From the NCBI GenBank assembly GCA_937906475.1, contig CALCZA010000113.1:12980-76979 (forward strand): DNA of 64,000 nucleotides, read 5' to 3'. Below the pieces are notes generated by a model, which was not told where the DNA came from, searched no databases, and saw only the letters and a program-made list of their open reading frames with translations. Shown here piece after piece: positions 37,320 to 50,282 of the stretch. Position numbers and translations under genes: made by a program. How positions within the stretch are numbered: position 1 is the first letter of the stretch; each line of letters opens with the position of its first letter. This stretch comes from an uncultured bacterium. GTDB lineage: Bacteria > Planctomycetota > UBA1135 > UBA2386.

Positions 37320-40300
37320 TCAGCTCTTTTCGGCCGCGGCCGCAGCCGCGGCCGCTTCTTCCTTGGCGCGGATGTCGGCTTCGTTGTCGAAGTTGCCTTC
37401 GACGCTCGCATCGCGCGGGCCTTCCGGCACTTCGACTGCTTCGCCCTTGTCCATCCAGATCAGGATTGGCGCGGCGATGTACATCGTCGAGTAGACACCC
37501 GAGAGCATGCCGACCGTCATGGCGAAGGCGAACGCTTCGAGGTCCGAGCCACTGTCGTAGTTCACAATCAGCTGCGCGATGACCACGAACAACGTCAGCA
37601 CCGTCGTCAAGACTGTGCGGGACAGCGTCTGGTTAAGCGAACGGTTGATCAGCGAGCGGAACGACTCGTTGACGTTGTTGCGCGCATTCTCGATCCGGTT
37701 CTCGCGGATCCGGTCGAACACGACAATCGTATCGTTCACCGAATACCCGATAATCGTTAGGAAGCACGCGATCATCGCTAGCCCGATTTCAGCACTGACC
37801 AGCCCCATGTTGTTGAACATGACCACGATCACGAGCGTGACTAGCACGTCGTGGATCAGCGCGACAACGGCCGCGAGACCATACTTGTATTCGTGGAAGC
37901 GAACGCGCAGGTAGAACACGATCAGCGCCCAAGCGAGGATCAGTGCGCCGATCGCGGCATTGCGCAGGTCGTTGACCAAGCGGCCTTGGATTTCCTGGGC
38001 TTCCGGGAAGGGGTCGGACAACACGATGGGGTTCTTGTCGTCGTCTTCCAGGTCAGCGATCTGCTCGCTGACGATCTCGGCAAGCTGCCACTGCTTGGTC
38101 GTCGCCTGGGTGGTCCATTCGACGCGGAAGTTCTGGGCGCTCGTTGTCTCCTGGTCGGCCACCGCTTCTTCGGACATTGGTTTGTCGAGCAACGGCACGA
38201 TCAAGCTATCGCTGAGGCCGCTACCCAGCAGGTTTTGCAGGCGCTTGAGGTCGATCTTGTCCGCGAAGTGCACGATGAGTTGCGCGTATTGCAAGCTCTC
38301 CGGGTTGGTGTCGTGCTCGGTCAGCTTGCCGCCGCTGAACGCTCGCTCGACGAGTTTGCCGGCGAAGATACGGCGCAGTTGGCCGAGGTAGGGCGGTTCG
38401 TAAATGGCGGGCGACGCGCCTTCCGCTCCTTGCTTGCGCAGTTCACGCCAGGCCTTGCGGCCCTTGTCGATTTCTTCGCGCTGCTTGGCGTTCAGTTTGA
38501 GGCGAACGTTGAACTCGTTGCCAGCGTCGCCGTAGGTGTTGACGCCCGTCGTCGGGTAGTCGGCATTGAACGCTTGGTCGTCATTGAGCAACTTGCGAAC
38601 TGCTTCGTCCGTCAGCTTCTCGTTGCAGACCATGCGCAGGTTGGCGCCACCGGTGAAGTCGATGCTGAGCACCTTCTCCGACGGCACCGTCGTCGCGTAG
38701 GCAATGCCGGCGATGATGACGATGGCGCTGAATGCGACGCACAACTTGATCTTGCCGACGAAGTCGACGTTGCGGTTCTCGAACAGCGTGTTGGGCTTCC
38801 AACCTTCGAGCTTCTTGTTCGTCAGCGCCCAGTGGAAGAGCAAGCGCGAGACGAAGAACTGCGTGAAGACCGTCGTGACGATACCGACCATCAGCGTCAC
38901 GGCGAAGCCGCGCACCGGACCGACACCGACGTTGAACAACACCAGGCCGACCAGGAAGGTCGTGATGTTGGAGTCGAGAATGGCCGACATCGCGCGTTCA
39001 AAGCCAGCGCGCACTGCCTGCAGCAGTTCCTTGCCCTTGTTGAGCTCTTCGCGAATGCGCTCGTAGATGAGCACGTTGGCGTCGACGGCCATACCGAGGG
39101 TCAGCACGATGCCGCCCAGACCCGGCAGGGTGATGGTCGCCTGCATGAACAGCATGCCCGCGTAGAGCAGGAACACGTTCAGTAACAAGGATACGCAGGC
39201 GATCATGCCGGCGAGCTTGTAGAAGGCGAGCATGAACAGGAAGACCAGGACGCCACCGCCGACGATCGACCACAGGCCACGCATGATGGCTTGGTCGCCC
39301 AGTTGGGCGCCGATCGTGACTTGGCTCAGCAGTTCCGGCTCGATGCGAAGCGAACCGGTGCGAAGCACCTTGACGAGCTCTTCGACCTCTGAGAGGGTGA
39401 AGTCGCCAGTGATGATGCCGTTGCGATTGATCTTGCTCTGGAAGGTCGGAGCCGACTTGACGTAGCCGTTGAGGATGATCGCGCTTGACTTGCCCTTGTG
39501 CTCCGACGACCAGTCGGCGTATTCGGCGGTCAGCGAGCCGATCATGCGGTAGCTGACGCCGGGGCCGCCGTTATCGCCGACGCCAACACCAACACCACTC
39601 GGGTCGAGATCTTCACCGCTGAAGGATCGCTCCTTCCTGTTGATCGCGATGAACTCGATCAGGCGCTGCTCCTTGATCGCAAGCTTCTGAACCTCTTCCG
39701 GAATCAGACCACCATTGTATTGCAGCGGGTCATACGCAGCGACGGCTTGGCTCGAGAGTCCCGACTGCGGGAGCGAGTCGGGCCTGTCCCAAAGGGTGCG
39801 GTCCTTCGGATTCGAGCGAATCTCGCGCGGGTACCAGTGCAGCTTGCCATGGGCAATCGGGCCGTTAGTGGTGCTCTCGTTGTATCGACGGATGTTCTTC
39901 GGATCCTTGTCGATCAGTTCCTTGTTTGCCGGGACCTTGAGCCACGTCTCGAGACGGGTGCGCTCAGCCGGCAGCTGGAACGTGGTGTTGTCCTTGGTGT
40001 AGTCGTCATAGGCCACCATGCGCATCTCGAGTCGGCCTAGGTTGCCGATTCGTTCGAGCACGCGCTTGAGCTCGTTGGGGTTCTTGAACTCTCCCAACTC
40101 GATCAGGATGCCGGTATCGCCGCTCTGCGTGATCAGCGGATCGAGGGTCCCGTTCGGGTCGATCCGTTCGCGCATGACGGTGACCGTCTGCGCCATGATC
40201 TCGGTGGCGGAGGCTGCTTCCTTTTGGATGAGCCCATCGAGAGTGTCCTTCGGGACGTTGTAGAGCAGCTGGGTGCCGCCCTTCAGGTCTGGACCGAGGG

Positions 40301-40472
40301 TGGGGTCCAGCGACACCCAGCAGGTGGCGCCCGCGATGATCGCGACCAGGACAAGGAGGAACTGACGGTTGGCGTTCTCGAGCATGACGGGCGAGGCCGC
40401 GAAAGGACTGTCGGGGGTGTAGTAGGTGCCTGTGGGTGACGGCCCGCTTGGGGTGTCACGTTTGGGCGGCAA
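37320..40472 (-). CDS. secDF: Fused protein-export membrane protein SecD-SecF
   Basis: 1050 aa. It has two 6-TM RND-like modules separated by and preceded by large periplasmic domains. SecD-like and SecF-like halves are recognisable (GLGGIVLTLGMAVDANVLIYERIREE and IGYSVNDTIVVFDRIREN). Confidence 0.9.
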   Translation of the reverse strand: MPPKRDTPSGPSPTGTYYTPDSPFAASPVMLENANRQFLLVLVAIIAGATCWVSLDPTLGPDLKGGTQLLYNVPKDTLDGLIQKEAASATEIMAQTVTVMRERIDPNGTLDPLITQSGDTGILIELGEFKNPNELKRVLERIGNLGRLEMRMVAYDDYTKDNTTFQLPAERTRLETWLKVPANKELIDKDPKNIRRYNESTTNGPIAHGKLHWYPREIRSNPKDRTLWDRPDSLPQSGLSSQAVAAYDPLQYNGGLIPEEVQKLAIKEQRLIEFIAINRKERSFSGEDLDPSGVGVGVGDNGGPGVSYRMIGSLTAEYADWSSEHKGKSSAIILNGYVKSAPTFQSKINRNGIITGDFTLSEVEELVKVLRTGSLRIEPELLSQVTIGAQLGDQAIMRGLWSIVGGGVLVFLFMLAFYKLAGMIACVSLLLNVFLLYAGMLFMQATITLPGLGGIVLTLGMAVDANVLIYERIREELNKGKELLQAVRAGFERAMSAILDSNITTFLVGLVLFNVGVGPVRGFAVTLMVGIVTTVFTQFFVSRLLFHWALTNKKLEGWKPNTLFENRNVDFVGKIKLCVAFSAIVIIAGIAYATTVPSEKVLSIDFTGGANLRMVCNEKLTDEAVRKLLNDDQAFNADYPTTGVNTYGDAGNEFNVRLKLNAKQREEIDKGRKAWRELRKQGAEGASPAIYEPPYLGQLRRIFAGKLVERAFSGGKLTEHDTNPESLQYAQLIVHFADKIDLKRLQNLLGSGLSDSLIVPLLDKPMSEEAVADQETTSAQNFRVEWTTQATTKQWQLAEIVSEQIADLEDDDKNPIVLSDPFPEAQEIQGRLVNDLRNAAIGALILAWALIVFYLRVRFHEYKYGLAAVVALIHDVLVTLVIVVMFNNMGLVSAEIGLAMIACFLTIIGYSVNDTIVVFDRIRENRIENARNNVNESFRSLINRSLNQTLSRTVLTTVLTLFVVIAQLIVNYDSGSDLEAFAFAMTVGMLSGVYSTMYIAAPILIWMDKGEAVEVPEGPRDASVEGNFDNEADIRAKEEAAAAAAAAEKS

Positions 40473-40527
40473 GCAAGTCTTCTCACGGAGACTTGCTCAC
40501 CATGAGATAGTGGCTGGCATCAGTTGT

Positions 40528-40546
40528 CTGCTGCCGGCGGCAGCAG
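40528..40546 (-). terminator. Candidate hairpin terminator downstream of rplS
   Basis: CTGCTGCC-GGC-GGCAGCAG, an 8-bp GC-rich stem. There is no clear U-tract. Confidence 0.25.
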
Positions 40547-40582
40547 GCTGACTGGCAGCCTTTTGGTTACAGCTGCAGGTTC

Positions 40583-41005
40583 TTATTCGACCGAGGCGGC
40601 ATCGGTGCTCGCCTTGGTGTCCGAAAGGCCGCTGCCAGCACCGCTACGCGGCCACTTCTTCGGACCTAGGTTGCGGGTCAAACGTGTCTTTTTGCCTTCG
40701 CGCTCACGCAGGTAGTAGAGCTTGGCGCGGCGGATGATGCCTCGGCCCTTGACCGTGACGTCGGCGACGCGCGAGCTGTGCAGGGCGAACGTGCGCTCGA
40801 CACCTTCGCCAGCGACGATGCGGCGAACCTTGAACGTCTTGCTGATGCCGTGGCCGTGGAATGCGATGACCGTGCCGGAGAACAACTGCACGCGCTCCTT
40901 CTCACCTTCCTTAATTAGGTAGTGCACGTCGACGGTATCGCCGGCACCGAAGTCGGGGAGCGAGGATTTCATGTGCTCGAGTTCGAGCTGACGCATGATG
41001 TTCAT
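40583..41005 (-). CDS. rplS: 50S ribosomal protein L19
   Basis: DFGAGDTVDVHYLIKEGEKERVQLFSGTVIA...FKVRRI...GVERTF. There is a C-terminal low-complexity extension. Confidence 0.95.
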   Translation of the reverse strand: MNIMRQLELEHMKSSLPDFGAGDTVDVHYLIKEGEKERVQLFSGTVIAFHGHGISKTFKVRRIVAGEGVERTFALHSSRVADVTVKGRGIIRRAKLYYLREREGKKTRLTRNLGPKKWPRSGAGSGLSDTKASTDAASVE

Positions 41006-41090
41006 TATTCTGTCTCTTAGTAGTTTGACGGCGTGCTTTGCGGCTCGGTCGTCGGGCTTTGGGTAGCCGGGCTTCGGATAGTTGTATGAG

Positions 41091-41801
41091 CTAGGTGTTG
41101 TCTGAGTTGGCTGGACGTTGCTCCGCAGAACGTTTCTGCGCGGTCAACAATTCAGCCTGCTCCTGACGCCAGCGTGCGACTTTGGCGTGGTCGCCCGACA
41201 ACAATACGTCGGGAACGGCCATGCCGCGAAACTCACGCGGACGAGTGTACTGCGGGTAATCGAGCCATTCGGTTTCGAACGACTCGAGTTGGGCGGACTC
41301 GGCACAGCCAAGCACCCCAGGGATCAGCCTTACCGCGGCTTCGAGAACGGCCATGGCTGGGAGTTCACCGCCGGCCAACACAAAGTTGCCTAGCGATATT
41401 TCCTCGTAGCCACCAGCAGAGCTGGTTAGACCGTCCCGGATGCGTTCGTCATAACCTTCGTAGCGACCGCACAAGAACATCACCCGCTCCATGCGGCTGA
41501 GTTCCCGCGCGCGCGCCTGGTCGAAGGTTCGACCGCGGGGGCAGAGCAGGATCTTGTGGAACGGGCCGTGAGCCTGTTCCACGTCATCTATAGTTGCAAA
41601 GATCGGTTCCGGTTTGAGCACCATGCCAGGTCCACCACCAAACGGTCGATCGTCGACCGTTCGATGAGGGTCCAGAGCGTTGTTTCGGAAGTCGACTAAG
41701 TCGAGCCGAAGCTTGCCCTGGGCCTGAGCTATCCCGAGGATGCTCTCGTCCAAGTAAGGCCGGATGGCCTCCGGAAAGAGTGTCAGAATGGCGCAGTGCA
41801 A
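41091..41801 (-). CDS. trmD: tRNA (guanine37-N1)-methyltransferase
   Basis: MHCAILTLFPE..., RTVDDRPFGGGPGMV, LCGRYEGYDERI and SLGNFVLAGGELPA. Confidence 0.9.
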   Translation of the reverse strand: MHCAILTLFPEAIRPYLDESILGIAQAQGKLRLDLVDFRNNALDPHRTVDDRPFGGGPGMVLKPEPIFATIDDVEQAHGPFHKILLCPRGRTFDQARARELSRMERVMFLCGRYEGYDERIRDGLTSSAGGYEEISLGNFVLAGGELPAMAVLEAAVRLIPGVLGCAESAQLESFETEWLDYPQYTRPREFRGMAVPDVLLSGDHAKVARWRQEQAELLTAQKRSAEQRPANSDNT

Positions 41802-42002
41802 GGTGCCCCTACCGTAAAGAAGGGGTAAGGACGATACGGTTGGGTCTAGGGGCGGTCAAGGCCGGCGAGCGCCGGGCGACAACCGCTTTTTCATGGGCGG
41901 CCTGTAACTGGCACCGTTGAGACCGGATAGTGGCTGCCCGAAGCTGCGGTAGCGGTGGCTCGATTGCGACCCGCACACCAATAGACCACCCCTCCAATTC
42001 CA

Positions 42003-42602
42003 ATGTTCACCGGCCTCGTCCAAGCCCTGGGATCTGTCACTGCCCGCACTGAGGTGCCTGGCGGTCTTCGTCTGCTGGTCGATATTTCCGGCCTCCCGGG
42101 CACGTTTCGCATTGGTGACTCGATTGCCCTGTCCGGGGCATGCTGCACCATTGTGACCCAGGAATCCGGTGTCGCCGAATTCTTCCTCACTCAGGAAACA
42201 CTCGATTGCACGTGGTTGGGCCGGGCAGAGATCGGCCAGGTGCTTAATTTGGAAGGGGCGCTACGGGCGGGCGAACCGCTCGGTGGACATATTGTCCAGG
42301 GCCACGTTGACGGGGTTGGCGAGGTCACCGGGGCCATCGACCCGCAAGGCGGGGGCGAACTGTGGGCGCGCATCCCTGATTCCCTGCAGAAATACTGCGT
42401 AGAAAAAGGCTCGGTGACCCTCGATGGGGTGTCGTTGACGATTGCCGGCCAGAAGGCAGGTGCGGTTCGCATCGCGATCATCCCACATACGGCGCAGCAG
42501 ACTTCGCTTGGCGGCCGGGCGGTTGGCGAACCAGTTCACGTCGAGGTCGATGTGCTGGCCAAGTATGTCGAGAGCATGCTGTCGCAGCGCGGCCTGACAT
42601 AG
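42003..42602 (+). CDS. ribE: Riboflavin synthase
   Basis: MFTGLVQALG start. Two lumazine-binding repeats (GDSIALSGACCT / GSVTLDGVSLT). Confidence 0.9.
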   Translation: MFTGLVQALGSVTARTEVPGGLRLLVDISGLPGTFRIGDSIALSGACCTIVTQESGVAEFFLTQETLDCTWLGRAEIGQVLNLEGALRAGEPLGGHIVQGHVDGVGEVTGAIDPQGGGELWARIPDSLQKYCVEKGSVTLDGVSLTIAGQKAGAVRIAIIPHTAQQTSLGGRAVGEPVHVEVDVLAKYVESMLSQRGLT

Positions 42603-42631
42603 GGGCGGGGCTTGGCGACGAGGATCGCTGC

Positions 42632-43114
42632 ATGCCCGAGAGCATCGCTTCGGTTGCCGACAGGAAGGCGGCGCACGGCTACGATGTCGGGCACGTGCCC
42701 GATTCGAGCGAACATCCACTGGTGCTGTTTGATGGTGATTGCAACCTGTGTCACAGGTCGGTGCAGTTCCTCTTGCAGCGGGATCGCGTCGGGCGCTTTC
42801 GGTTTGCGTCGCTGCAGTCGCAGGCAGGGCGTGATGCGATCGCCGCGGTGGCGCATGGTGATCTGCCGGACAGCATCATGCTGATTCGCGGCGGCAAGCT
42901 GAAAGTGAAGTCGACGGCTGCGCTGGCGATCGCACGCGGGTTGCGGTTTCCGTGGCCGCTGGTCTCGGTGTTCTGGCTCGTGCCCTATCCGCTGCGAAAC
43001 CTTGTCTACGACTGGGTCGCGCGCAACCGCATTCGTTGGTTTGGCAAGCGCGAAGAGTGTTGGGTGCCGACGCCAGAGTTGCGGGCCCGCTTCCTCGACG
43101 CTGACGAACGGTAG
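42632..43114 (+). CDS. Thiol-disulfide oxidoreductase, DCC family (DUF393)
   Basis: VLFDGDCNLCHRSVQFLLQRD...FRFASLQS is the DCC-family signature. Confidence 0.75.
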   Translation: MPESIASVADRKAAHGYDVGHVPDSSEHPLVLFDGDCNLCHRSVQFLLQRDRVGRFRFASLQSQAGRDAIAAVAHGDLPDSIMLIRGGKLKVKSTAALAIARGLRFPWPLVSVFWLVPYPLRNLVYDWVARNRIRWFGKREECWVPTPELRARFLDADER

Positions 43115-43155
43115 GCTGGCAACGTGCTGAGTTGGCGCGCAGCCTGCGGCACGTC

Positions 43156-44316
43156 CTAGAACGCGCCGAATAAGACCTGCACGAAATTGCTGATCGGTGC
43201 CGCTTCGCGAGCATCTTCGATCGCGCGGGAAACCTGCGTCAGGATGCGACGGAAGCGAACCGCCAGGTCTTCTTCGTTGATCAGTGCCCCGAGCAGACCC
43301 TTACGCTGAGTGAGTTGCGCGCTGACTATGTTGAGGTTGGCGATCGTCTCCTTCAAGTGCTTGGCCATCTCCGGATCGCTAGAGATTGCGCCGAGTGCGC
43401 CAGCGTTGGGGTCGTTGGCCTTCTTCAGCACCGTGTTCAGGTTCTCGACGATCGATGCGAACTCGCCAGCAAGTTTGTCGTCGGTCAGGATGCGGCCGAG
43501 CATGCCTTTGCCATCGCGCGAGTCGGCAATCAACCGGTCGACGTTGTCGAGGATGCCCTGCAGGTTACGCGCCGCATCCTTGTCGTTGAGCAAAACGCCG
43601 AGTGGCCCATCGGTTCGTAGCAGGTTGTCGCTGACCATGCGCACATTGGCGAGCAGCGCCATCGTGTCTTCGGCCGTCTGCTTGTTCATGATCAAGGTGC
43701 CGAGCGCGCCTTCGGCGTTGGTAACCGCTTCGAAGATGCGGTTGGCGTTGTTGAACGTGCTGAGCAAGCTGTCGTAGAGTTCGCGGCTGGTCGCAATGCG
43801 ACCGATCGACGTCTCCGGATCGTTCATGTTGCGGAAGAAGTCGCCGATCTCATTGAGCGAGGAGTTTAGCGATTCGCCAACCGCGCCTTTGCCATCGGCG
43901 ATGTTGCCGAGCTTGTCGAACGCACTGCCCGCGACCTTGCCCAGTAGATCTTCGCCGGCGGCGAGCGCTTTGCCCTTGCCCGGGTCGATGTAGATCTGTT
44001 TGCCGCCGAGCACGCCGTCGTCGCGCACTTCGATCAGGTGGCCGTCTTTGAGCGGGATCTTCTCGCGCAGCAACAACTGCATCCTCACTGGCGTGTCGAC
44101 GCGGTCGTATTGGATGTCGATGGCGCCGACTTTGCCGATCTTCTTGCCGAGCACCATTACGTTGGTGCCAACGTCACAGCTGCCCGCTTGCGGGAAGTAG
44201 ACGTCGATCTTCTCACTCAGTGACAAGTCGGTCAGGTTGACGGTTGCCCAGAGCAGAAAGCCCAGCGTGCCGAAGAAGACGAAGCCGAGCAGGGTGTCGC
44301 GTTTGATGCGGTCCAT
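43156..44316 (-). CDS. MlaD/Mce-family substrate-binding protein with a long repetitive C-terminal helical extension
   Basis: The start at 44316 gives MDRIKRDTLLGFVFFGTLGFLLW (TM anchor), followed by an MCE domain (VMVLGKKIGKVGAIDI). Six repeats of about 35 aa of the xGxLGxLxxD type follow. The listed start at 44469 overlaps mlaF and is Arg-rich. Confidence 0.8.
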   Translation of the reverse strand: MDRIKRDTLLGFVFFGTLGFLLWATVNLTDLSLSEKIDVYFPQAGSCDVGTNVMVLGKKIGKVGAIDIQYDRVDTPVRMQLLLREKIPLKDGHLIEVRDDGVLGGKQIYIDPGKGKALAAGEDLLGKVAGSAFDKLGNIADGKGAVGESLNSSLNEIGDFFRNMNDPETSIGRIATSRELYDSLLSTFNNANRIFEAVTNAEGALGTLIMNKQTAEDTMALLANVRMVSDNLLRTDGPLGVLLNDKDAARNLQGILDNVDRLIADSRDGKGMLGRILTDDKLAGEFASIVENLNTVLKKANDPNAGALGAISSDPEMAKHLKETIANLNIVSAQLTQRKGLLGALINEEDLAVRFRRILTQVSRAIEDAREAAPISNFVQVLFGAF

Positions 44317-44348
44317 GTGGATGTGTTGATCGGGAGTGCGGGTTGCTG

Positions 44349-45077
44349 TTAGTCGGAGCCCATGCCCATGAAGGCGCGGGCTAGTGGGTGGTCGCTGTTG
44401 GTTATCTCGTCGACGCTGCCTTCGATGCCAATGCCGCCACCTTCGAGGATGCCGATGCGATCGCCACACTGCGTCGCACAGGCGCGCGAATGCGTGACGA
44501 TCAATCCGGTCACCGATAGGGTGTCGCGGACTTCGGCGATCAGTTCGTGGATCTGATGGCTGATGATTGGATCGAGGCCGGCGTTTGGTTCGTCGTAGAG
44601 CACGTACTCGGGGTTGGTCACCAGCGCGCGCGCCAAGCCAGCACGCAGCTTCATGCCGCCGGAGATGTCCGGTGGACCCTGCTTCGCGGCGTGGTCCATG
44701 CCGACCAGTTTGAGCACTTCGTGCACGCGGTCATCGACTTCGGACTTTGAGATGCGACTGTGTTCTCTGAGCGGCAGGGCCACGTTGTCACCGACCGACA
44801 GCCAGTTGATCAGGGCACCGTTTTGGAACAGGTAGCCCATGCGTTTACGCAACGCCATCAGTTGCTTCTGATCCATCGCCGGCACGTCTTGGCCGTCGAC
44901 ATAGACGTTGCCCTGGTCTGGCTTGAAGATGCCGATGACGTGCTTGAGGGTGACGCTCTTGCCAGTGCCGGATGGACCCATCAGCACGTAGTTCACGCCC
45001 TTCGGAATCTTGACGCTCAGGCCCTTCAAGATGTCTCGGTCGCCCAGCCGCTTATGCACGTTTTGCAGTTCGATCAT
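44349..45077 (-). CDS. mlaF: ABC transporter ATP-binding protein, MlaF-type
   Basis: Walker A GPSGTGKS, signature ISGGMKLRAGLARAL and Walker B VLYDEPNAGLDP. Confidence 0.85.
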   Translation of the reverse strand: MIELQNVHKRLGDRDILKGLSVKIPKGVNYVLMGPSGTGKSVTLKHVIGIFKPDQGNVYVDGQDVPAMDQKQLMALRKRMGYLFQNGALINWLSVGDNVALPLREHSRISKSEVDDRVHEVLKLVGMDHAAKQGPPDISGGMKLRAGLARALVTNPEYVLYDEPNAGLDPIISHQIHELIAEVRDTLSVTGLIVTHSRACATQCGDRIGILEGGGIGIEGSVDEITNSDHPLARAFMGMGSD

Positions 45078-45080
45078 CGC

Positions 45081-45875
45081 TTAGGCCAGGAAGTAGAAGA
45101 ACCACGTGATCACGAAGCCGAGCACGATGATCAGCAACACCGAGTTGCGCACCGCGGTCTGCACCGCGAGTCCAACACCGAGTGCGCCGCCGCGAGCCTT
45201 CAAGCCCGCCGCGCAGCTGACGCTTGCGATGGCGATGCCGAAGATGAACGACTTGAGCAGGCCGACGTAGACTTCCTTCGGCAGTAGCATGCCGGACGAA
45301 GTCAGCGATTCGATTGCGCCGACCCAATAGAGGTCGGGGCTGACGCCGAGATTCTGTTCGGCGATGACGCTGCCGCCGTAGATGCCGATCAGGTTGGATA
45401 GCACGGTCAGGATCGGGCACATCAATGCGAGGGCGACGACGCGAGGTAGTACCAAGTAGTCGATGGGATCGATCGACATGACTTCGAGTGCATCGATTTC
45501 ATCCGACACCTTCATGGTGCCTAGTTCAGCCGCAATCGCGGAGCCGACCGTTGCCGCCAGGATGACACCGGTGATGAACGGGCCCATCTCACGGCACATC
45601 GACAGTGCCGTGATGGTGCCGAGCACGCTGGTGTTACCGAACTTGCGCAGTTCGATGCCGGTCTGCATCGCGAGGATGGCTCCGGCGAACGCGGCAACCA
45701 CGAGCGTCACTGGCAGTGCCCGCACGCCAGCATTGAATCCGTTGTCGAGCAGGAAGCGCAGTCGCCGCGGTAACCGGGGCAAGCAGAGCAACGTGCGCAG
45801 CATCAAGTTGACGACGTAGCCCGCACCTTGCGATCGTTCGGCGAAGAAGCGGGTTGTGCTTGCTAGCGGATTCAT
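45081..45875 (-). CDS. mlaE: ABC transporter permease, MlaE-type
   Basis: 264 aa with a polytopic MlaE/YrbE-like layout. It lies 3 nt upstream of mlaF. Confidence 0.85.
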   Translation of the reverse strand: MNPLASTTRFFAERSQGAGYVVNLMLRTLLCLPRLPRRLRFLLDNGFNAGVRALPVTLVVAAFAGAILAMQTGIELRKFGNTSVLGTITALSMCREMGPFITGVILAATVGSAIAAELGTMKVSDEIDALEVMSIDPIDYLVLPRVVALALMCPILTVLSNLIGIYGGSVIAEQNLGVSPDLYWVGAIESLTSSGMLLPKEVYVGLLKSFIFGIAIASVSCAAGLKARGGALGVGLAVQTAVRNSVLLIIVLGFVITWFFYFLA

Positions 45876-47311
45876 TACTTGCCACCCCCCAAGGGGATTG
45901 GCAAGAACTGGAACAGGCGCAGCGTGCGTTCGCCACCCTCGTCTTGTTCGTAGTTGAACAGGAACGGCATGCTCGCCGTGGTGCCGTCCTGGCGCGAGCG
46001 ATGCGTGTAGACGCGGCCAACGACATCGACCGCATGATCATCCTTGCTGCGCTGCACGCCACGTGCGAGTTCCCAAAGGAAGCCGTAGGCCTCGTGCAGG
46101 CCGTAGGTCAGACCCTTGTGGCCGAACAACGGCGACAACAGGCTCCAGTCGGCCGTCACGGTCTCACCGTTCTTGTCCGTTAGTTCGTCCTGATGATAGA
46201 GCGGCCACAGCGACAGGTAGCGTTCCTTCGAGCCGTCCTCGTTGTCCTTGGCGATGCGCGAAAAGAACGGCACGATAGTTTGTTGTTCGTGCGTGCCTTC
46301 CGGATCGCTGTAGTGACGCCACCAGATGAATGGCCACAGTGCGGTCCACGAATCTTGGTCGTCACTAACGACGCGACTGAAGAACGGCCAGACCCACCAG
46401 GCGGTGACGTTGTCTTCGAGCGCGTTGTGGTAGTAGCGGTAGATCGGCCACAGCACGTTGAGCGCGACAAACTGATCGCGCATCGTCGTCGAACTGAAGA
46501 ACGGCCATAGCGCGGTCCAGCCGTTGACCGCCGGACCGTTGCGCCAACCGAAGAACGGCCACATGAAGAACGAACTCACCGGTCCGGACTTCGCGTCGAG
46601 GTTTTCATCGCTCCACGAGAAGAATGGCCACAGGGCAAATCGTCGGTCGCTCTGGCCTTCTTCGATGTCGTGGCCGTAGAACGGCAGTACGCGAAACCAG
46701 CTGTGCGTTCCTTCGGCGCAGTCACTCCAACCGATCAGCGGCCACAGCGCGAGTTGGTGGTAGTGATCGTTCTTCTCGAGCCCAACCCACAGCGGAAACA
46801 GCACCGTGCGGAAGCGCCGGTAGCTGAGGAACTCGGGGATGTCGGCGTAGAACGGCAACACCGCGAAGTAGTTCTCGTCGTCCTCTGCGTTCGACCCGCC
46901 CCAAATGAACGGGAACAGCAGATACCAATCGTTGTCCCACTTGCCGTTTTCGTCCTCTGCCGTGCGCCAACTCCACAGCGGGAACAGGCGCGCGTGGGTC
47001 TGCTTCTCGTAGGACTGCACGCGCCCAAACGGCCACAAGAACTGATGATCGACGGACGCGTCTTCGGGCAGTTCGGGCGATGGTTGGGTGACCCGCCGGT
47101 AGAGCGGCCGGATGCGGAAGTCATCGCCGCCGTCGGCGGTCTGCTCGTAGTGCAGGATCGGCCACGCCGCGTCCCACTCCAGCATGTTGCCTTCGGCATC
47201 CATGCGGTGGAACCAGACCGGAGTCAGATTCAGCTCGCGGGGCATCAGCGAGCACGAGCTAGTCAGTATGACTAGCAGGAAGGCGACTAGGTATCGGCTC
47301 GGGCGCACCAT
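45875..47311 (-). CDS. Lipoprotein built from about 18-20 tandem ~20-aa repeats with an [LVM][WFL]P[FLI][FYIW] core; unknown family
   Basis: Signal plus lipobox-like LVILTSSC. Repeats read directly include LWPFGRV, LFPLWSW, LFPFIWG, VLPFYAD, LFPLWVG, LWPLIGW, VLPFYGH, LWPFFSW, MWPFFGW, LWPFFSS, LWPIYRY, VWPFFSR, LWPFIWW, IVPFFSR and LWPLYHQ. Its stop overlaps the mlaE start (TAATG). Confidence 0.7.
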   Translation of the reverse strand: MVRPSRYLVAFLLVILTSSCSLMPRELNLTPVWFHRMDAEGNMLEWDAAWPILHYEQTADGGDDFRIRPLYRRVTQPSPELPEDASVDHQFLWPFGRVQSYEKQTHARLFPLWSWRTAEDENGKWDNDWYLLFPFIWGGSNAEDDENYFAVLPFYADIPEFLSYRRFRTVLFPLWVGLEKNDHYHQLALWPLIGWSDCAEGTHSWFRVLPFYGHDIEEGQSDRRFALWPFFSWSDENLDAKSGPVSSFFMWPFFGWRNGPAVNGWTALWPFFSSTTMRDQFVALNVLWPIYRYYHNALEDNVTAWWVWPFFSRVVSDDQDSWTALWPFIWWRHYSDPEGTHEQQTIVPFFSRIAKDNEDGSKERYLSLWPLYHQDELTDKNGETVTADWSLLSPLFGHKGLTYGLHEAYGFLWELARGVQRSKDDHAVDVVGRVYTHRSRQDGTTASMPFLFNYEQDEGGERTLRLFQFLPIPLGGGK

Positions 47312-47668
47312 GCGGGTGTCAGGAGGATGCCAGAGATGGGAGGGGGCCGCACGTGAGAAACGGCGCGCGGCGTCGGTGATGCTGGCGATTCGGCAAACGG
47401 TGAGCGGTAGCGCAGGTCGTGTGTGGGTGTGGCGGGGGAATCTTGGTGTTGTGCCGATGCGCTTCCGGTTGTGGGCCTACGGCCTAGTGGCGTCAGTCTC
47501 TCCTGCGATGCGACCCTGACGAACATGGCCGAGGTGGCATGCCAACAGGTCTGCCAGGCCCGTGTGAGGGCAATCTGTTCGGTCGACAAGGGCCGCCGTG
47601 GCATCAGCGGGCAACGAAGCCGCACACGAACAGTTCGCACCACGCCGCTGCCACGCTACAACGTGTGC

Positions 47669-48655
47669 ATGGTTCGAACTTTGTCCGGTATCCAGCCGAC
47701 CGGCAATCTGCACATCGGCAATTACCTCGGCGCCTTGGTCAACTGGGTCAAGCTGCAGGAAGAATACGACGCATACTTCTGCGTCGTCGACATGCACGCG
47801 CTGACCCAGCGCCCCGACCCCGAGGTGCTGCGTCAGGCCGTTCGCGAACTTGCGATCGGCGTGCTGGCAAGCGGCGTCGACCCAGAGCGCGCGACGCTGT
47901 TCGTGCAGTCTCAGGTGCCGCAGCATGCCGAATTAGCGTGGGTGATGATGTGTTTGACGCCGCTCGGCGACCTGAACCGCATGACGCAGTTCAAGGACAA
48001 GAGCACCCAGCAGCCGGACAATATCAACGCGGGACTGTTTACCTATCCGGTGCTGCAGACGGCCGATATCGCGCTGTATCGCCCCGAAGCGGTGCCTGTA
48101 GGCGAGGACCAGGACCAGCACCTTGAACTCGCGCGCGAGACCATTCGTCGCTTCAACTTTACCTACGGCGGTGACGTGTTCCCTGAGCCGAAGACCGTCA
48201 AGAGCCTGGCGCCGCGCGTCATGGGGCTCGATGGTCAGAGCAAGATGTCGAAGTCGAAGAACAACGAGATTGGCTTGTTCGAGACCGAAGCCGAGACTTG
48301 GAAGAAGCTCAAAGGTGCGAAGACGGATCCGGCGCGTGAGCGCCGCAGTGATCCGGGGACGCCTGAAGTCTGCAACATCTACAGCTACCACGGCTTCTTC
48401 TCGACGGACGAGCAGCGTGCGGAATTGGCCGAAGGCTGCCGCAAGGCGACGCTTGGCTGTGTGGACTGCAAGAAGATGCTCGGCACTAATATGGAGTCCG
48501 TGAAAGGCCCGATCCGCGAACGTGCGGCAGATCTTCGCAGCAAGCCGGGCGAACTCGATCAGATTTTGGCCGCCGGAGCCGAGAAGGCGCGCCGTACTGC
48601 GGAAGAGACCATGGTCATGGTTCGGGATCGAATTGGTTTGGCAGGAGGTAAGTAA
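47669..48655 (+). CDS. trpS: Tryptophan--tRNA ligase
   Basis: The start at 47669 gives MVRTLSGIQPTGNLHIGNYLG (HIGH-type motif). KMSKS is present. The listed upstream 82 aa are not protein-like. Confidence 0.9.
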   Translation: MVRTLSGIQPTGNLHIGNYLGALVNWVKLQEEYDAYFCVVDMHALTQRPDPEVLRQAVRELAIGVLASGVDPERATLFVQSQVPQHAELAWVMMCLTPLGDLNRMTQFKDKSTQQPDNINAGLFTYPVLQTADIALYRPEAVPVGEDQDQHLELARETIRRFNFTYGGDVFPEPKTVKSLAPRVMGLDGQSKMSKSKNNEIGLFETEAETWKKLKGAKTDPARERRSDPGTPEVCNIYSYHGFFSTDEQRAELAEGCRKATLGCVDCKKMLGTNMESVKGPIRERAADLRSKPGELDQILAAGAEKARRTAEETMVMVRDRIGLAGGK

Positions 48656-49188
48656 TGATGAATGCGACGAGGCGGACCGCAGTAGTTGCGATGGTTGTGT
48701 TGGGCATGGGCTTGTCGGGATGCGGCGGTGCGCCGGCGACTTCCGAACAGCGGCGAATGGCTGAACGTCAGTTAGTGCTGCCGTTTCTGCAGAACACCGA
48801 AGTTGCGTGTGCTGAACTCGAGGTCGACATCACGCCGAACTTCCACCTGCACATTGGCGTTCCTGGCACCCACCCGCGCCTGCATCGCTTCGACAAAGAG
48901 GACAAGCAGGCGCTGGTTGAGAAAACTTGGCGCAACATCCTGGGCAGCCGGCCGGGCTGGTTCACCGTGACCATCTCCGAACCGAAGGACGAAACCGATG
49001 TGTCGGGCACGCCGACGCCGCGCACGACCTACACCGTCACGCACCAGTTCACGCTGCGTACTCACGAGCGGGCGGCAATGACGTTGTCCGCTCGCGCGAC
49101 CGGGCCGGTCGTTATTGTGCGCGAAGCTGGCGGTAAGCCTCGCGATGCTCAGGAGTTTGCGATCGTCAACGGTGTCGTGAAGAAGTGA
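48655..49188 (+). CDS. Hypothetical lipoprotein
   Basis: Lipobox GLSGC (VVLGMGLSGCGGAP). The start overlaps the trpS stop (TAATG). Confidence 0.5.
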   Translation: MMNATRRTAVVAMVVLGMGLSGCGGAPATSEQRRMAERQLVLPFLQNTEVACAELEVDITPNFHLHIGVPGTHPRLHRFDKEDKQALVEKTWRNILGSRPGWFTVTISEPKDETDVSGTPTPRTTYTVTHQFTLRTHERAAMTLSARATGPVVIVREAGGKPRDAQEFAIVNGVVKK

Positions 49189-50282
49189 TGCGCCGCCGTC
49201 TGTATTCCCTGAGCCTGTATCCGTTGGTGCTTCTGTCGGCATCGTGCGAGGCGTTGCAGGGCGGGGGTAGCGCTACCGAGACCAGCTATTCGGAGTGTGC
49301 CGACGCCGAAGCTCTGGCGGCGTGGAGTCGTGCGAAGCTGCTCGTCGGGTTGGCGCGGGATGAGGAGGCCTTGCCGCTGCTAGAACTCGTGACGAGCAAG
49401 TGCCCCGAGTTGTTGCGTGCCCACATGGCCTACCAAGACGCTGCGAAGCGCTTAGGTGGCGAGCACCATCAGGCGATGGTCGACTTTTACGTAAAGGCTC
49501 CGGAACGCGCGCCAGGCGACCGTTCGCCCGTGCCTGCCTATTTGCGCGCGCGTCTGGCTGAAACCGCGTATGCGCAATCGAATGCGCTCGATCAGATCTT
49601 GGCCAGTCACCCGACGTTTGCGTGGGGTTACTTGTCACGAGGCCGCGTCAATCGTGGCCAAGGCCGCCTTTCTGAGGCGCTGCAGAACTACGATAAGGCG
49701 ATTGCGAACGATGCTGGGTTGCTGGAGGCGCGTCTTGAGCGTGCCCAGGTGCTGACCGAACTCGGCCGCGATGAAGAGTCTGCCGTTGAGTACAAGACCT
49801 ACGTTCGTCAGACGCCGAGCGATTCGGTTGCGGTGCGCGAGTACATCACGCTGCTGCTCTATCGGTTGGGGCGAATTGATGAGGCGTTGCTGTATCTCGA
49901 CCTACTGGAACAGCGTGGGGAGAAGTCGTTGTCGCTGCGTATGGATCGAGCCGCAGCGCTATGGCGCGCCAATCAATCGCAGGCCGCTGTGGAGATCTAC
50001 CTAGAGATCCTGGCCGCTGAGCCAGCGAATGCCCGCGCCGCGCTGAACATCGGATTGCTTTACTACGAGATCGTGCCGCAGGATGAGGCAGCCAAGCTGC
50101 GGTTCTGGCCGAAGGCGCGGGCGGCGTTCGAGTTATTCCTGCAGGGTAGCGTGCCGATTGATGGGCATGAGCAGTTTGAGCGATCGTGGGCGGTGCCATA
50201 TCGCTTGCGGCGCATCGGCGAGTTGCTCGGCCCGTCGCCGGCTGGAGCCAAGCTCCAAGACTTGTCCTGGCCCGCCAACTAG
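49185..50282 (+). CDS. TPR-repeat protein, probable lipoprotein
   Basis: N-terminal LLSASC. Multiple 34-aa TPR-like units (for example GRLSEALQNYDKAIANDAGLLEARLERAQVL). It overlaps the upstream gene by 4 nt. Confidence 0.65.
   Translation: MMRRRLYSLSLYPLVLLSASCEALQGGGSATETSYSECADAEALAAWSRAKLLVGLARDEEALPLLELVTSKCPELLRAHMAYQDAAKRLGGEHHQAMVDFYVKAPERAPGDRSPVPAYLRARLAETAYAQSNALDQILASHPTFAWGYLSRGRVNRGQGRLSEALQNYDKAIANDAGLLEARLERAQVLTELGRDEESAVEYKTYVRQTPSDSVAVREYITLLLYRLGRIDEALLYLDLLEQRGEKSLSLRMDRAAALWRANQSQAAVEIYLEILAAEPANARAALNIGLLYYEIVPQDEAAKLRFWPKARAAFELFLQGSVPIDGHEQFERSWAVPYRLRRIGELLGPSPAGAKLQDLSWPAN

Follow-up and report, generated by a model that had tools for sequence, protein, structure and literature searches.

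Most of the work on how phospholipids and other lipids cross the periplasm rests on a few Proteobacteria. A phylum-wide survey by Grasekamp et al. described MlaEFD as ancestral and widely distributed, with MlaA, MlaB, and MlaC occurring mostly in Proteobacteria, and the authors asked whether non-homologous proteins replace the missing Mla components (PMC10665443). The MlaD proteins of the PVC group were also found to be without an outer-membrane beta-barrel (PMC10665443). As MlaA and MlaC are largely proteobacterial and PVC MlaD has no barrel, the component on the outer-membrane side is missing in these lineages. Here we describe a 478-amino-acid beta-hairpin repeat protein, named REP, that is encoded by the open reading frame 45875..47311 on the minus strand of a 64,000-nucleotide stretch of DNA from an uncultured bacterium of the Planctomycetota (contig CALCZA010000113.1, positions 12,980 to 76,979); this whole stretch is called the window. 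REP is encoded by the first gene of an operon whose other genes specify an MCE transporter. Because the REP family is large, unnamed, and MCE-linked in several phyla, it is a concrete candidate for the replacement of the missing component.

According to a 2026 study, the outer-membrane partners known for MCE systems comprise a porin-like barrel and lipoproteins with "at least two distinct folds", MlaA-like and PqiC-like (PMC13631591). In PA3211-3214 and PqiBC the MCE needle passes through a PqiC-like ring of eight subunits, and in PA3211-3214 and PqiABC a hydrophobic groove on the outer-membrane lipoprotein receives the C-terminal peptide of the MCE protein (PMC13631591). Binding to the lipoprotein was abolished when the C-terminal peptide of the MCE protein was deleted (PMC13631591). 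The Brucella Mpc system combines MlaEF, a needle-MCE protein, and a PqiC-like protein (PMC12436622). For the long MlaD of Terrabacteria a direct trans-envelope bridge has been proposed (PMC10665443).

The operon in the window encodes, after REP and on the same minus strand, an MlaE-type permease of 264 amino acids (45081..45875; PF02405, E = 1.2e-67), an MlaF-type ABC ATPase of 242 amino acids (44349..45077; PF00005, E = 7e-30), and an MCE/MlaD protein of 386 amino acids (43156..44316; PF02470, E = 2.7e-12). The permease scored 220.4 bits against TIGR00056 (cut-off 212.2) and belongs to the MlaE family. The best NCBIfam match of the ATPase was MlaF with 178.6 bits, below the equivalog cut-off of 441, and the ATPase is therefore described as MlaF-like rather than as an MlaF equivalog. 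The MCE protein scored 47 bits against PF02470 (cut-off 25) and has the hydrophobic N-terminal segment expected of this group. The stop codon of REP overlaps the start codon of mlaE in the sequence TAATG (45873..45877, minus strand), which is a signature of translational coupling, and the gaps between mlaE and mlaF and between mlaF and mce are 3 and 32 nucleotides. Genes for MlaA, MlaB, MlaC, and PqiC were absent from the cluster, and no second REP or MCE gene was found in the window. The initial annotation of this locus, which was made from the letters of the sequence, had described the 478-residue reading frame with its signal peptide and LTSSC lipobox, the TAATG overlap and the two short gaps, and the lack of MlaA, MlaB, and MlaC, and all of these held up against the open reading frame list, the DNA sequence, and an alignment of 46 orthologues.

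The genomic association between REP and MCE transporters is solid. Loci were collected from one genome per GTDB species; 80 loci were returned and 3 of them stop at a contig edge. Of the Planctomycetota loci, 75 have sequence downstream of REP, and in every one of them (tblastn) the genes mlaE, mlaF, and mce follow REP immediately and on the same strand; this order is kept while the identity of REP drops from 96% to 30%. Additionally, nine distant relatives were looked up individually, from Kiritimatiellia, Trichloromonas, Desulfuromonas versatilis (a closed isolate genome), two other Planctomycetota lineages, and four further contigs or metagenome-assembled genomes, and REP lies beside MlaE, ABC, and MlaD genes in all nine. 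The gene order of the window is found in 8 of these 9; in the remaining one (L088) REP follows the ABC and MCE genes. The distance between REP and mlaE is -26 to +17 nucleotides in the window and in 7 of the 8 relatives in which REP is directly upstream of mlaE, and is 165 nucleotides in the other (L085). Taken together, REP directly adjoins MCE transporter genes in 84 of 84 checked loci from at least three phyla. The genes that flank the unit are entirely different between lineages, and it follows that the four-gene unit is what is conserved. Since members of the family are almost always found beside an MCE transporter, REP is probably a previously unrecognised component of it, and we consider REP very probably a subunit or an obligate partner of the transporter. 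The suggestion in the initial annotation that REP is a dedicated MCE partner is thus strongly supported, and its proposed check, conservation of the adjacency in related genomes, gave a positive result that extends to a closed isolate genome.

Several observations were made on individual loci. The neighborhood of the operon, with trpS on one side and ribE-trmD-rplS-secDF on the other (window 37320-48655), is the same in L083 (1-13449), a Planctomycetota metagenome-assembled genome whose REP is about 35% identical to that of the window; this shared housekeeping neighborhood suggests a core, vertically inherited locus. The MCE gene of L088 appears to be split. In two Desulfuromonadales loci, L082 (2792-5865, 10362-11342) and L089 (2812-5926, 10330-11307), the same four genes, encoding a histone-deacetylase-like protein, a 276-residue protein, a TPR protein, and a tiny open reading frame, precede the REP-MCE operon and a multihaem cytochrome gene comes after it, so that the conserved cluster may be larger than four genes in this order. 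In Kiritimatiellia (L081, 9983-13419) the operon is followed by a gene for a 108-residue protein and then by five N_methyl (prepilin-type) genes. A contig of 6.8 kb (JBERSB010000188.1, locus L006) that was binned as Luminiphilus sp. (Gammaproteobacteria) carries a Planctomycetota-type REP-mlaEFD operon with 67% REP identity and is probably a binning contaminant. Several other REP loci are labelled "uncultured candidatus Brocadiaceae".

REP had no match in Pfam at E <= 1, in NCBIfam, or among PDB sequences, and the original remark that it could not be placed in a known family therefore stands. A word-indexed search returned 714 relatives, and the best 120 of these 714 were without Pfam annotation, came from Planctomycetota metagenome-assembled genomes, and were called "hypothetical protein" wherever their source gave a name. 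An exhaustive profile search of 1.84 billion cluster representatives (clusters at 50% identity) gave 1,375 clusters that passed E <= 1e-3, of which 978 also passed E <= 1e-10; most members are 450-530 amino acids long. Remote members with 22-30% identity were found in Kiritimatiellia, Desulfobacca, Desulfuromonadales, and other Planctomycetota clades, and the cultured carriers include Desulfuromonas versatilis, Geoalkalibacter halelectricus, and G. ferrihydriticus. When 95 distant members were scanned, Pfam gave nothing that was family-wide; PF03640, matched by one protein, was the sole Pfam family found, and such single chance matches were set aside. In the NCBIfam scan, 5 of the 95 had weak matches to the C-terminal domain of Leptospira LA_1737 (NF047486), the best of which (E = 1.7e-6, 28.1 bits against a curated cut-off of 60) covered part of the profile. 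The REP of the window had no NF047486 match and is not assigned to the LA_1737 family, which like the REP family is uncharacterised. A description of the REP family was not found in the open-access full-text literature, which is absence of evidence and not proof. Judged by these searches, REP belongs to a large unnamed protein family.

The hairpin motif is also found in very different proteins. Three giant relatives, P0138 (1767 amino acids), P0185 (1402 amino acids), and P0252 (1018 amino acids), contain 33-60 copies of the Trp-Pro (W-P) hairpin motif. P0138, which has 60 copies, sits among glycoside-hydrolase genes and not beside an MCE transporter, and an 842-residue relative from Nitrospirae with about 25% identity (L079, 4657-7185) lies among redox genes and is likewise not MCE-linked. 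The hairpin repeat thus exists beyond the MCE-linked family of about 480 amino acids.

The N-terminus of REP, MVRPSRYLVAFLLVILTSSC, reads as a signal peptide (residues 1-20, 47252..47311) with a hydrophobic core up to Cys20 in the lipobox L-T-S-S-C20. The Cys is at least 90% conserved in the alignment of 46 orthologues (49-80% identity), with L-x-[AGS]-[GAS] before it and a near-invariant [SA][LVI][ML]PRELNL after it. REP is accordingly predicted to be exported, and in the clade of the window a lipobox marks Cys20 as the site of an N-terminal lipid anchor; the lipidation itself is predicted from the sequence. A strict lipobox pattern was found in 84 of 116 Planctomycetota orthologues versus 6 of 117 Desulfuromonadales members, most of which have an ordinary signal peptide. 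The predicted lipid anchor is therefore clade-specific, and the localisation of REP across the family is not due to the anchor alone. REP had been called a lipoprotein at the outset, which is apt for the clade of the window and does not extend to the family.

The strict motif [LVMIFW][WFLY]P[FLIVW][FYWIL] occurs 13 times in REP at a spacing of 18-23 amino acids, compared with a mean of 0.29 and a maximum of 3 in 2,000 composition-preserving shuffles. When degenerate copies are counted, the number of repeat units is 18-20, as estimated in the initial annotation. The core contains 17 turns of the form [L/V]-[W/F/L]-P-[F/L/I] (residues 49-372, 46196..47167, minus strand) whose prolines, as well as several tryptophans, are invariant across the orthologues. 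The composition of mature REP is unusual, with 30 Trp, 35 Phe, 19 Tyr, and 30 Pro and a net charge of -25. The protein ends in …FLPIPLGGGK.

The structure of REP was predicted with AlphaFold2 from the orthologue alignment. In the model, which has a mean predicted local distance difference test score (pLDDT) of 87.7 and a predicted template modelling score (pTM) of 0.69, the signal helix is accompanied by 44 short strands arranged as successive hairpins and by a single helix near residues 401-413. The meander of 22 hairpins and the short helix covers residues ~26-474 (45890..47236, minus strand), and the strands have a mean length of 5.9 residues and a maximum of 8. A model of D. versatilis REP (pLDDT 87.6, pTM 0.72) has 46 strands, and its helix lies in the corresponding position; the two models are independent, as their alignments do not overlap. 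In both models [L/V]-[W/F/L]-P-[F/L/I] forms a tight hairpin turn and does not open a strand, which corrects the initial annotation, where each unit opens with the motif. The loops between the strands alternate strictly between W-P turns and acidic or Gly-rich turns. Assigned to two edges on the assumption of a simple up-and-down meander, the loops of the window protein place 31 aromatic residues on the W-P edge (net charge +1, Wimley-White interfacial free energy -0.46 kcal/mol per residue) and 2 on the other edge (net charge -25, +0.63 kcal/mol per residue). The corresponding values for D. versatilis REP are 30 aromatic residues and 22 Pro with a net charge of +2 on the W-P edge, and 1 aromatic residue with a net charge of -10 on the other. 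In the model of the window protein, one edge of the sheet would thus carry a continuous row of ~20 Trp/Phe-Pro turns, with an acidic edge opposite.

Unit-to-unit profile similarity revealed no higher-order repeat period in REP, whether two-unit blades or three-unit turns; beyond the turn the units have little in common, but individually they are well conserved among the orthologues. Foldseek searches of the PDB with both models gave E-values down to 5e-5 and query-normalised template modelling (TM) scores of at most 0.19, and the matches included teneurin YD shells, OspA, the CPAP G-box, tandem propellers, LptD, and ApoB100. PqiC, PA3214, and 2IQI were not among the top 50 Foldseek matches listed for REP. 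To judge from the models, these matches reflect a generic similarity between hairpin arrays and not homology, and no solved structure matches the predicted fold globally. A beta-propeller of the BamB type, which would have blades of four strands and a period of ~40 amino acids, was considered and rejected, as there is no two-unit super-period, the TM scores with propellers were 0.10-0.14, and no PQQ or WD profile matched. REP is therefore predicted to be a strongly edge-polarised beta-hairpin meander without a solved counterpart. The beta-solenoid or large barrel that the initial annotation had expected stays a conjecture.

The MCE protein encoded with REP has an N-terminal transmembrane segment, an MCE domain, and a long C-terminal helical region, with ~270 residues after the MCE domain. 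Its gene is taken to start at ATG 44316 (386 amino acids), which is backed by the orthologue alignment and the N-terminal sequence. A longer reading frame of 437 amino acids from a GTG at 44469 (43156-44469, minus strand) was rejected as an artefactual over-extension that overlaps mlaF by 121 nucleotides. The MCE protein of the window had no match among PDB sequences, and in the Pfam scan it matched PF02470 alone. The precomputed annotation of nine related operons places PF28544 (Helical_needle) on their MCE proteins, weakly or faintly in 8 of the 9. These matches of the homologues suggest that the MCE protein supplies the needle that spans the periplasm, and for this reason the idea in the initial annotation that REP is an analogue of a LetB-like tunnel is unlikely; of that interpretation, the partnership is retained and the tunnel is not.

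The last ~30 residues of the MCE protein (43159..43248, minus strand), which end in …QVSRAIEDAREAAPISNFVQVLFGAF-COOH, are the most conserved segment outside the transmembrane and MCE core among 50 orthologues, and are a candidate docking peptide. The consensus is …QVSRAIEDAREAAPIxNFVQVLLGAF-COOH, with a hydrophobic end. A similar tail is shared by seven MCE proteins of REP operons in other phyla, in a comparison that covered REP-linked operons, with the following pattern: acidic residues or Arg, then Pro, then a hydrophobic stretch that ends in G-x-[F/L]. As a side observation, L082 and L084 have a variant tail, …SD[ST]GP[LV]SALGVV[VL]GT[ML]F, and their paired REPs are without a lipobox, while tails of the type …REx-x-P-x-x-F…GAF are mostly paired with lipobox-bearing REPs; the tail type and the REP lipobox may co-vary (n=7 in all, L081-L087). 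The helical part of the MCE protein of the window also contains five copies of G-x-L-G-x-[L/I]-x-x-[D/N] at a spacing of ~37-45 amino acids, and a fragment in L088 (1822-2280) has three near-identical copies of 35 amino acids of the same kind.

We propose that REP is secreted and acts as an accessory subunit dedicated to a needle-type MCE transporter, probably at the outer-membrane end, where it would serve as a platform for the docking of the tails; we give this reading a rough probability of 0.55. In this mechanism, the frame of the transporter would consist of MlaE and MlaF in the inner membrane and of an MCE hexamer that bears a helical needle, and REP would be produced along with it from the translationally coupled first gene. 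The aromatic edge, plus the lipid anchor where it is present, would hold REP on the periplasmic face of the outer membrane, where it would receive the tip of the MCE needle as a landing platform and would probably capture the hydrophobic C-terminal tails of the MCE subunits. REP would do the job that is done elsewhere by PqiC-like rings, MlaA, or a C-terminal beta-barrel, and the lipid path between the membranes would be completed. That REP acts at the outer-membrane end, docking the needle and the C-terminal tails with its Trp-Pro edge in the membrane interface, is to us an evenly balanced proposition. We tentatively go further and suggest that REP could represent a third, structurally unprecedented class of outer-membrane-side partner besides the MlaA-like and PqiC-like lipoproteins and the beta-barrels, a beta-meander collar made of a single chain or of an oligomer that receives the needle and the tails. 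The Trp-Pro rim would lie in the inner leaflet of the outer membrane and the collar would be a portal for the entry or exit of lipids. If this is true, it would explain how "MlaEFD-only" systems in Planctomycetota, Kiritimatiellia, Desulfuromonadales, and other groups reach the outer membrane.

Several points weigh against placing REP as a docking platform at the outer membrane. Both the location and the mechanism are inferred. We know of no rules for lipoprotein sorting in Planctomycetota, so that retention in the inner membrane is possible. As the anchor is absent in most Desulfuromonadales members, lipidation is not essential to the role of the family. The two edges were defined by assuming a simple up-and-down meander, and the amphipathicity of the strand faces is only modest (0.67 versus 0.545 +/- 0.058 in shuffles). 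Additionally, Cys20 is ~5 residues before strand 1 and strand 1 starts from the acidic edge, and as a consequence the anchor and the aromatic edge may point in different directions. The conserved tail, which was compared within REP-linked operons, does not imply specificity for REP.

The alternatives differ mostly in where REP would act. REP could be an accessory near the inner membrane, retained at or bound to its periplasmic face and assembled around the MlaE permease or the MCE ring, that gates the entry of lipids or stabilises the hexamer. This would fit with the position of REP as the first gene and its translational coupling to the permease gene, with a Cys that, if lipidated as predicted, joins the conserved folded segment almost without a linker, and with an aromatic rim that could bind either membrane, and the lack of known sorting rules leaves room for it. 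The Cys is followed by Ser or Ala and not by Asp, the inner-membrane retention signal of E. coli, although this comparison counts for little across phyla. The known MCE systems need no periplasmic collar at the inner membrane, the conserved element of the MCE protein is the distal C-terminal tail, and it is the outer-membrane-side component that is missing in these lineages (PMC10665443); we consider this placement unlikely. It is somewhat less likely still that REP is a soluble or peripheral lipid-binding protein of the periplasm, an analogue of MlaC or of a substrate-binding protein with its aromatic residues as the lipid surface. Many family members have a cleavable signal peptide only, mature REP is rich in aromatic residues (30 W, 35 F, 19 Y), and the lipid-wrapping beta-belt of ApoB100 is among the weak Foldseek matches, but the TM score of that match (0.16) is not meaningful and the lipobox is conserved in the Planctomycetota clade. 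REP is also a protein of ~50 kDa with a net charge of -25, unlike the MlaC-like carriers, which are alpha/beta proteins of ~20 kDa. Judging from PqiB, Mce1, and PA3213, a needle-type MCE protein makes a shuttle unnecessary (PMC13631591).

Some MCE systems have a porin-like barrel as their outer-membrane partner (PMC13631591), and the prediction of REP as an all-beta protein of 44 strands, with LptD among its weak matches, could suggest an integral outer-membrane beta-barrel of this kind. The short strands (mean 5.9, maximum 8) cannot span the membrane, for which ~9 residues or more are needed, and the transmembrane barrel was therefore rejected. The C-terminus of REP is without the terminal aromatic residue that is the typical signal of outer-membrane barrels, REP carries a lipobox, and the LptD matches had TM scores of ~0.10 and probabilities of at most 0.4, so that a barrel is very improbable. 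We regard it as equally improbable that the adjacency is a conserved operon habit and that the function of REP is unrelated to the transporter. The very distant hairpin-repeat relatives that are not MCE-linked, namely the 842-residue Nitrospirae protein and the 1,767-residue giant, would be in line with such a habit. Against it stand the 84 of 84 loci in at least three phyla in which REP adjoins MCE genes, frequently with overlapping start and stop codons, and the persistence of this adjacency while the flanking genes differ completely between lineages.

The surroundings of the operon in the window consist of trpS on one side and genes for a DCC1-like oxidoreductase, ribE, trmD, rplS, and secDF on the other. 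A scan for promoters and terminators returned 0 promoters and fewer terminators than expected from shuffles. Two further putative lipoprotein genes with overlapping stop and start codons are found on the plus strand at 48655-50282. The first encodes 177 amino acids with the lipobox …GLSGC and is without a Pfam match, and the second encodes a 365-residue TPR protein (…LLSASC) with a sub-threshold match to the Slam TPR domain.

The REP system can be viewed as an MCE lipid transporter to which a new family of accessory proteins has been added. It should be of interest to envelope biologists as it offers a candidate for a component that is known to be missing in several phyla, and the cultured carriers (Desulfuromonas versatilis and Geoalkalibacter species) together with the compact four-gene operon make the hypothesis testable now.

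The hairpin arrays that resemble REP most are the YD/Rhs shells of teneurin and Tc toxins and the single-layer beta-sheets of OspA and the CPAP G-box, which like REP are built from hairpins of ~20 residues in an antiparallel meander with a turn motif. These are the top Foldseek matches by probability, with an identity of 5-10% and TM scores of at most 0.19. REP differs from the YD/Rhs proteins in its shorter strands, its W-P rather than Y-D motif, its size, and its biological context, and as the RHS/YD profiles of Pfam and NCBIfam gave no match, REP is not counted among them. MlaA, from the E. coli MlaFEDB/MlaC/MlaA system, is a helical, membrane-embedded ring and, as predicted for REP, an exported lipoprotein that accompanies a transporter of the MlaE/MlaF/MlaD type. 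The MlaA (PF04333) and MlaC (PF05494) profiles did not match REP. MlaA depends on MlaC as a soluble carrier, and its gene lies at a locus of its own (PMC10665443), whereas the REP operon has a putative needle MCE protein and no MlaC gene. Like the REP lineages, Veillonella parvula and other Terrabacteria are without MlaA or MlaC and have an MlaEFD-only operon, and their long MlaD ends in an outer-membrane beta-barrel (PMC10665443). The MCE protein of the window ends instead in a short hydrophobic tail, and a separate REP is present.

The closest organisation is found in PA3211-PA3214 of P. aeruginosa, the XCC0632-type systems, and Brucella Mpc, which like the REP operon are four-gene units of permease, ATPase, MCE protein, and exported lipoprotein. 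They share a single-MCE-domain protein, whose helical needle is putative in the window, where it is suggested by the mostly weak or faint PF28544 matches of its relatives. The PqiC-like lipoproteins, which are alpha/beta proteins of ~190 amino acids, form octameric rings and are unrelated to REP, a protein of 478 amino acids that is predicted to be all beta-hairpin, is unmatched in Foldseek, and is encoded first in its operon rather than last. REP had no match to PF03886, the profile of the PqiC-like or ABC-transport auxiliary lipoproteins. A conserved C-terminal peptide of the MCE protein is common to the REP operon and to PA3213 and PqiB, where the peptide docks on the lipoprotein (PMC13631591, PMC12436622). 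From gene order and the predicted models, the REP operon appears to follow the same four-part logic as the PqiC-like systems, with an exported protein that is unrelated to theirs in sequence, size, and predicted fold.

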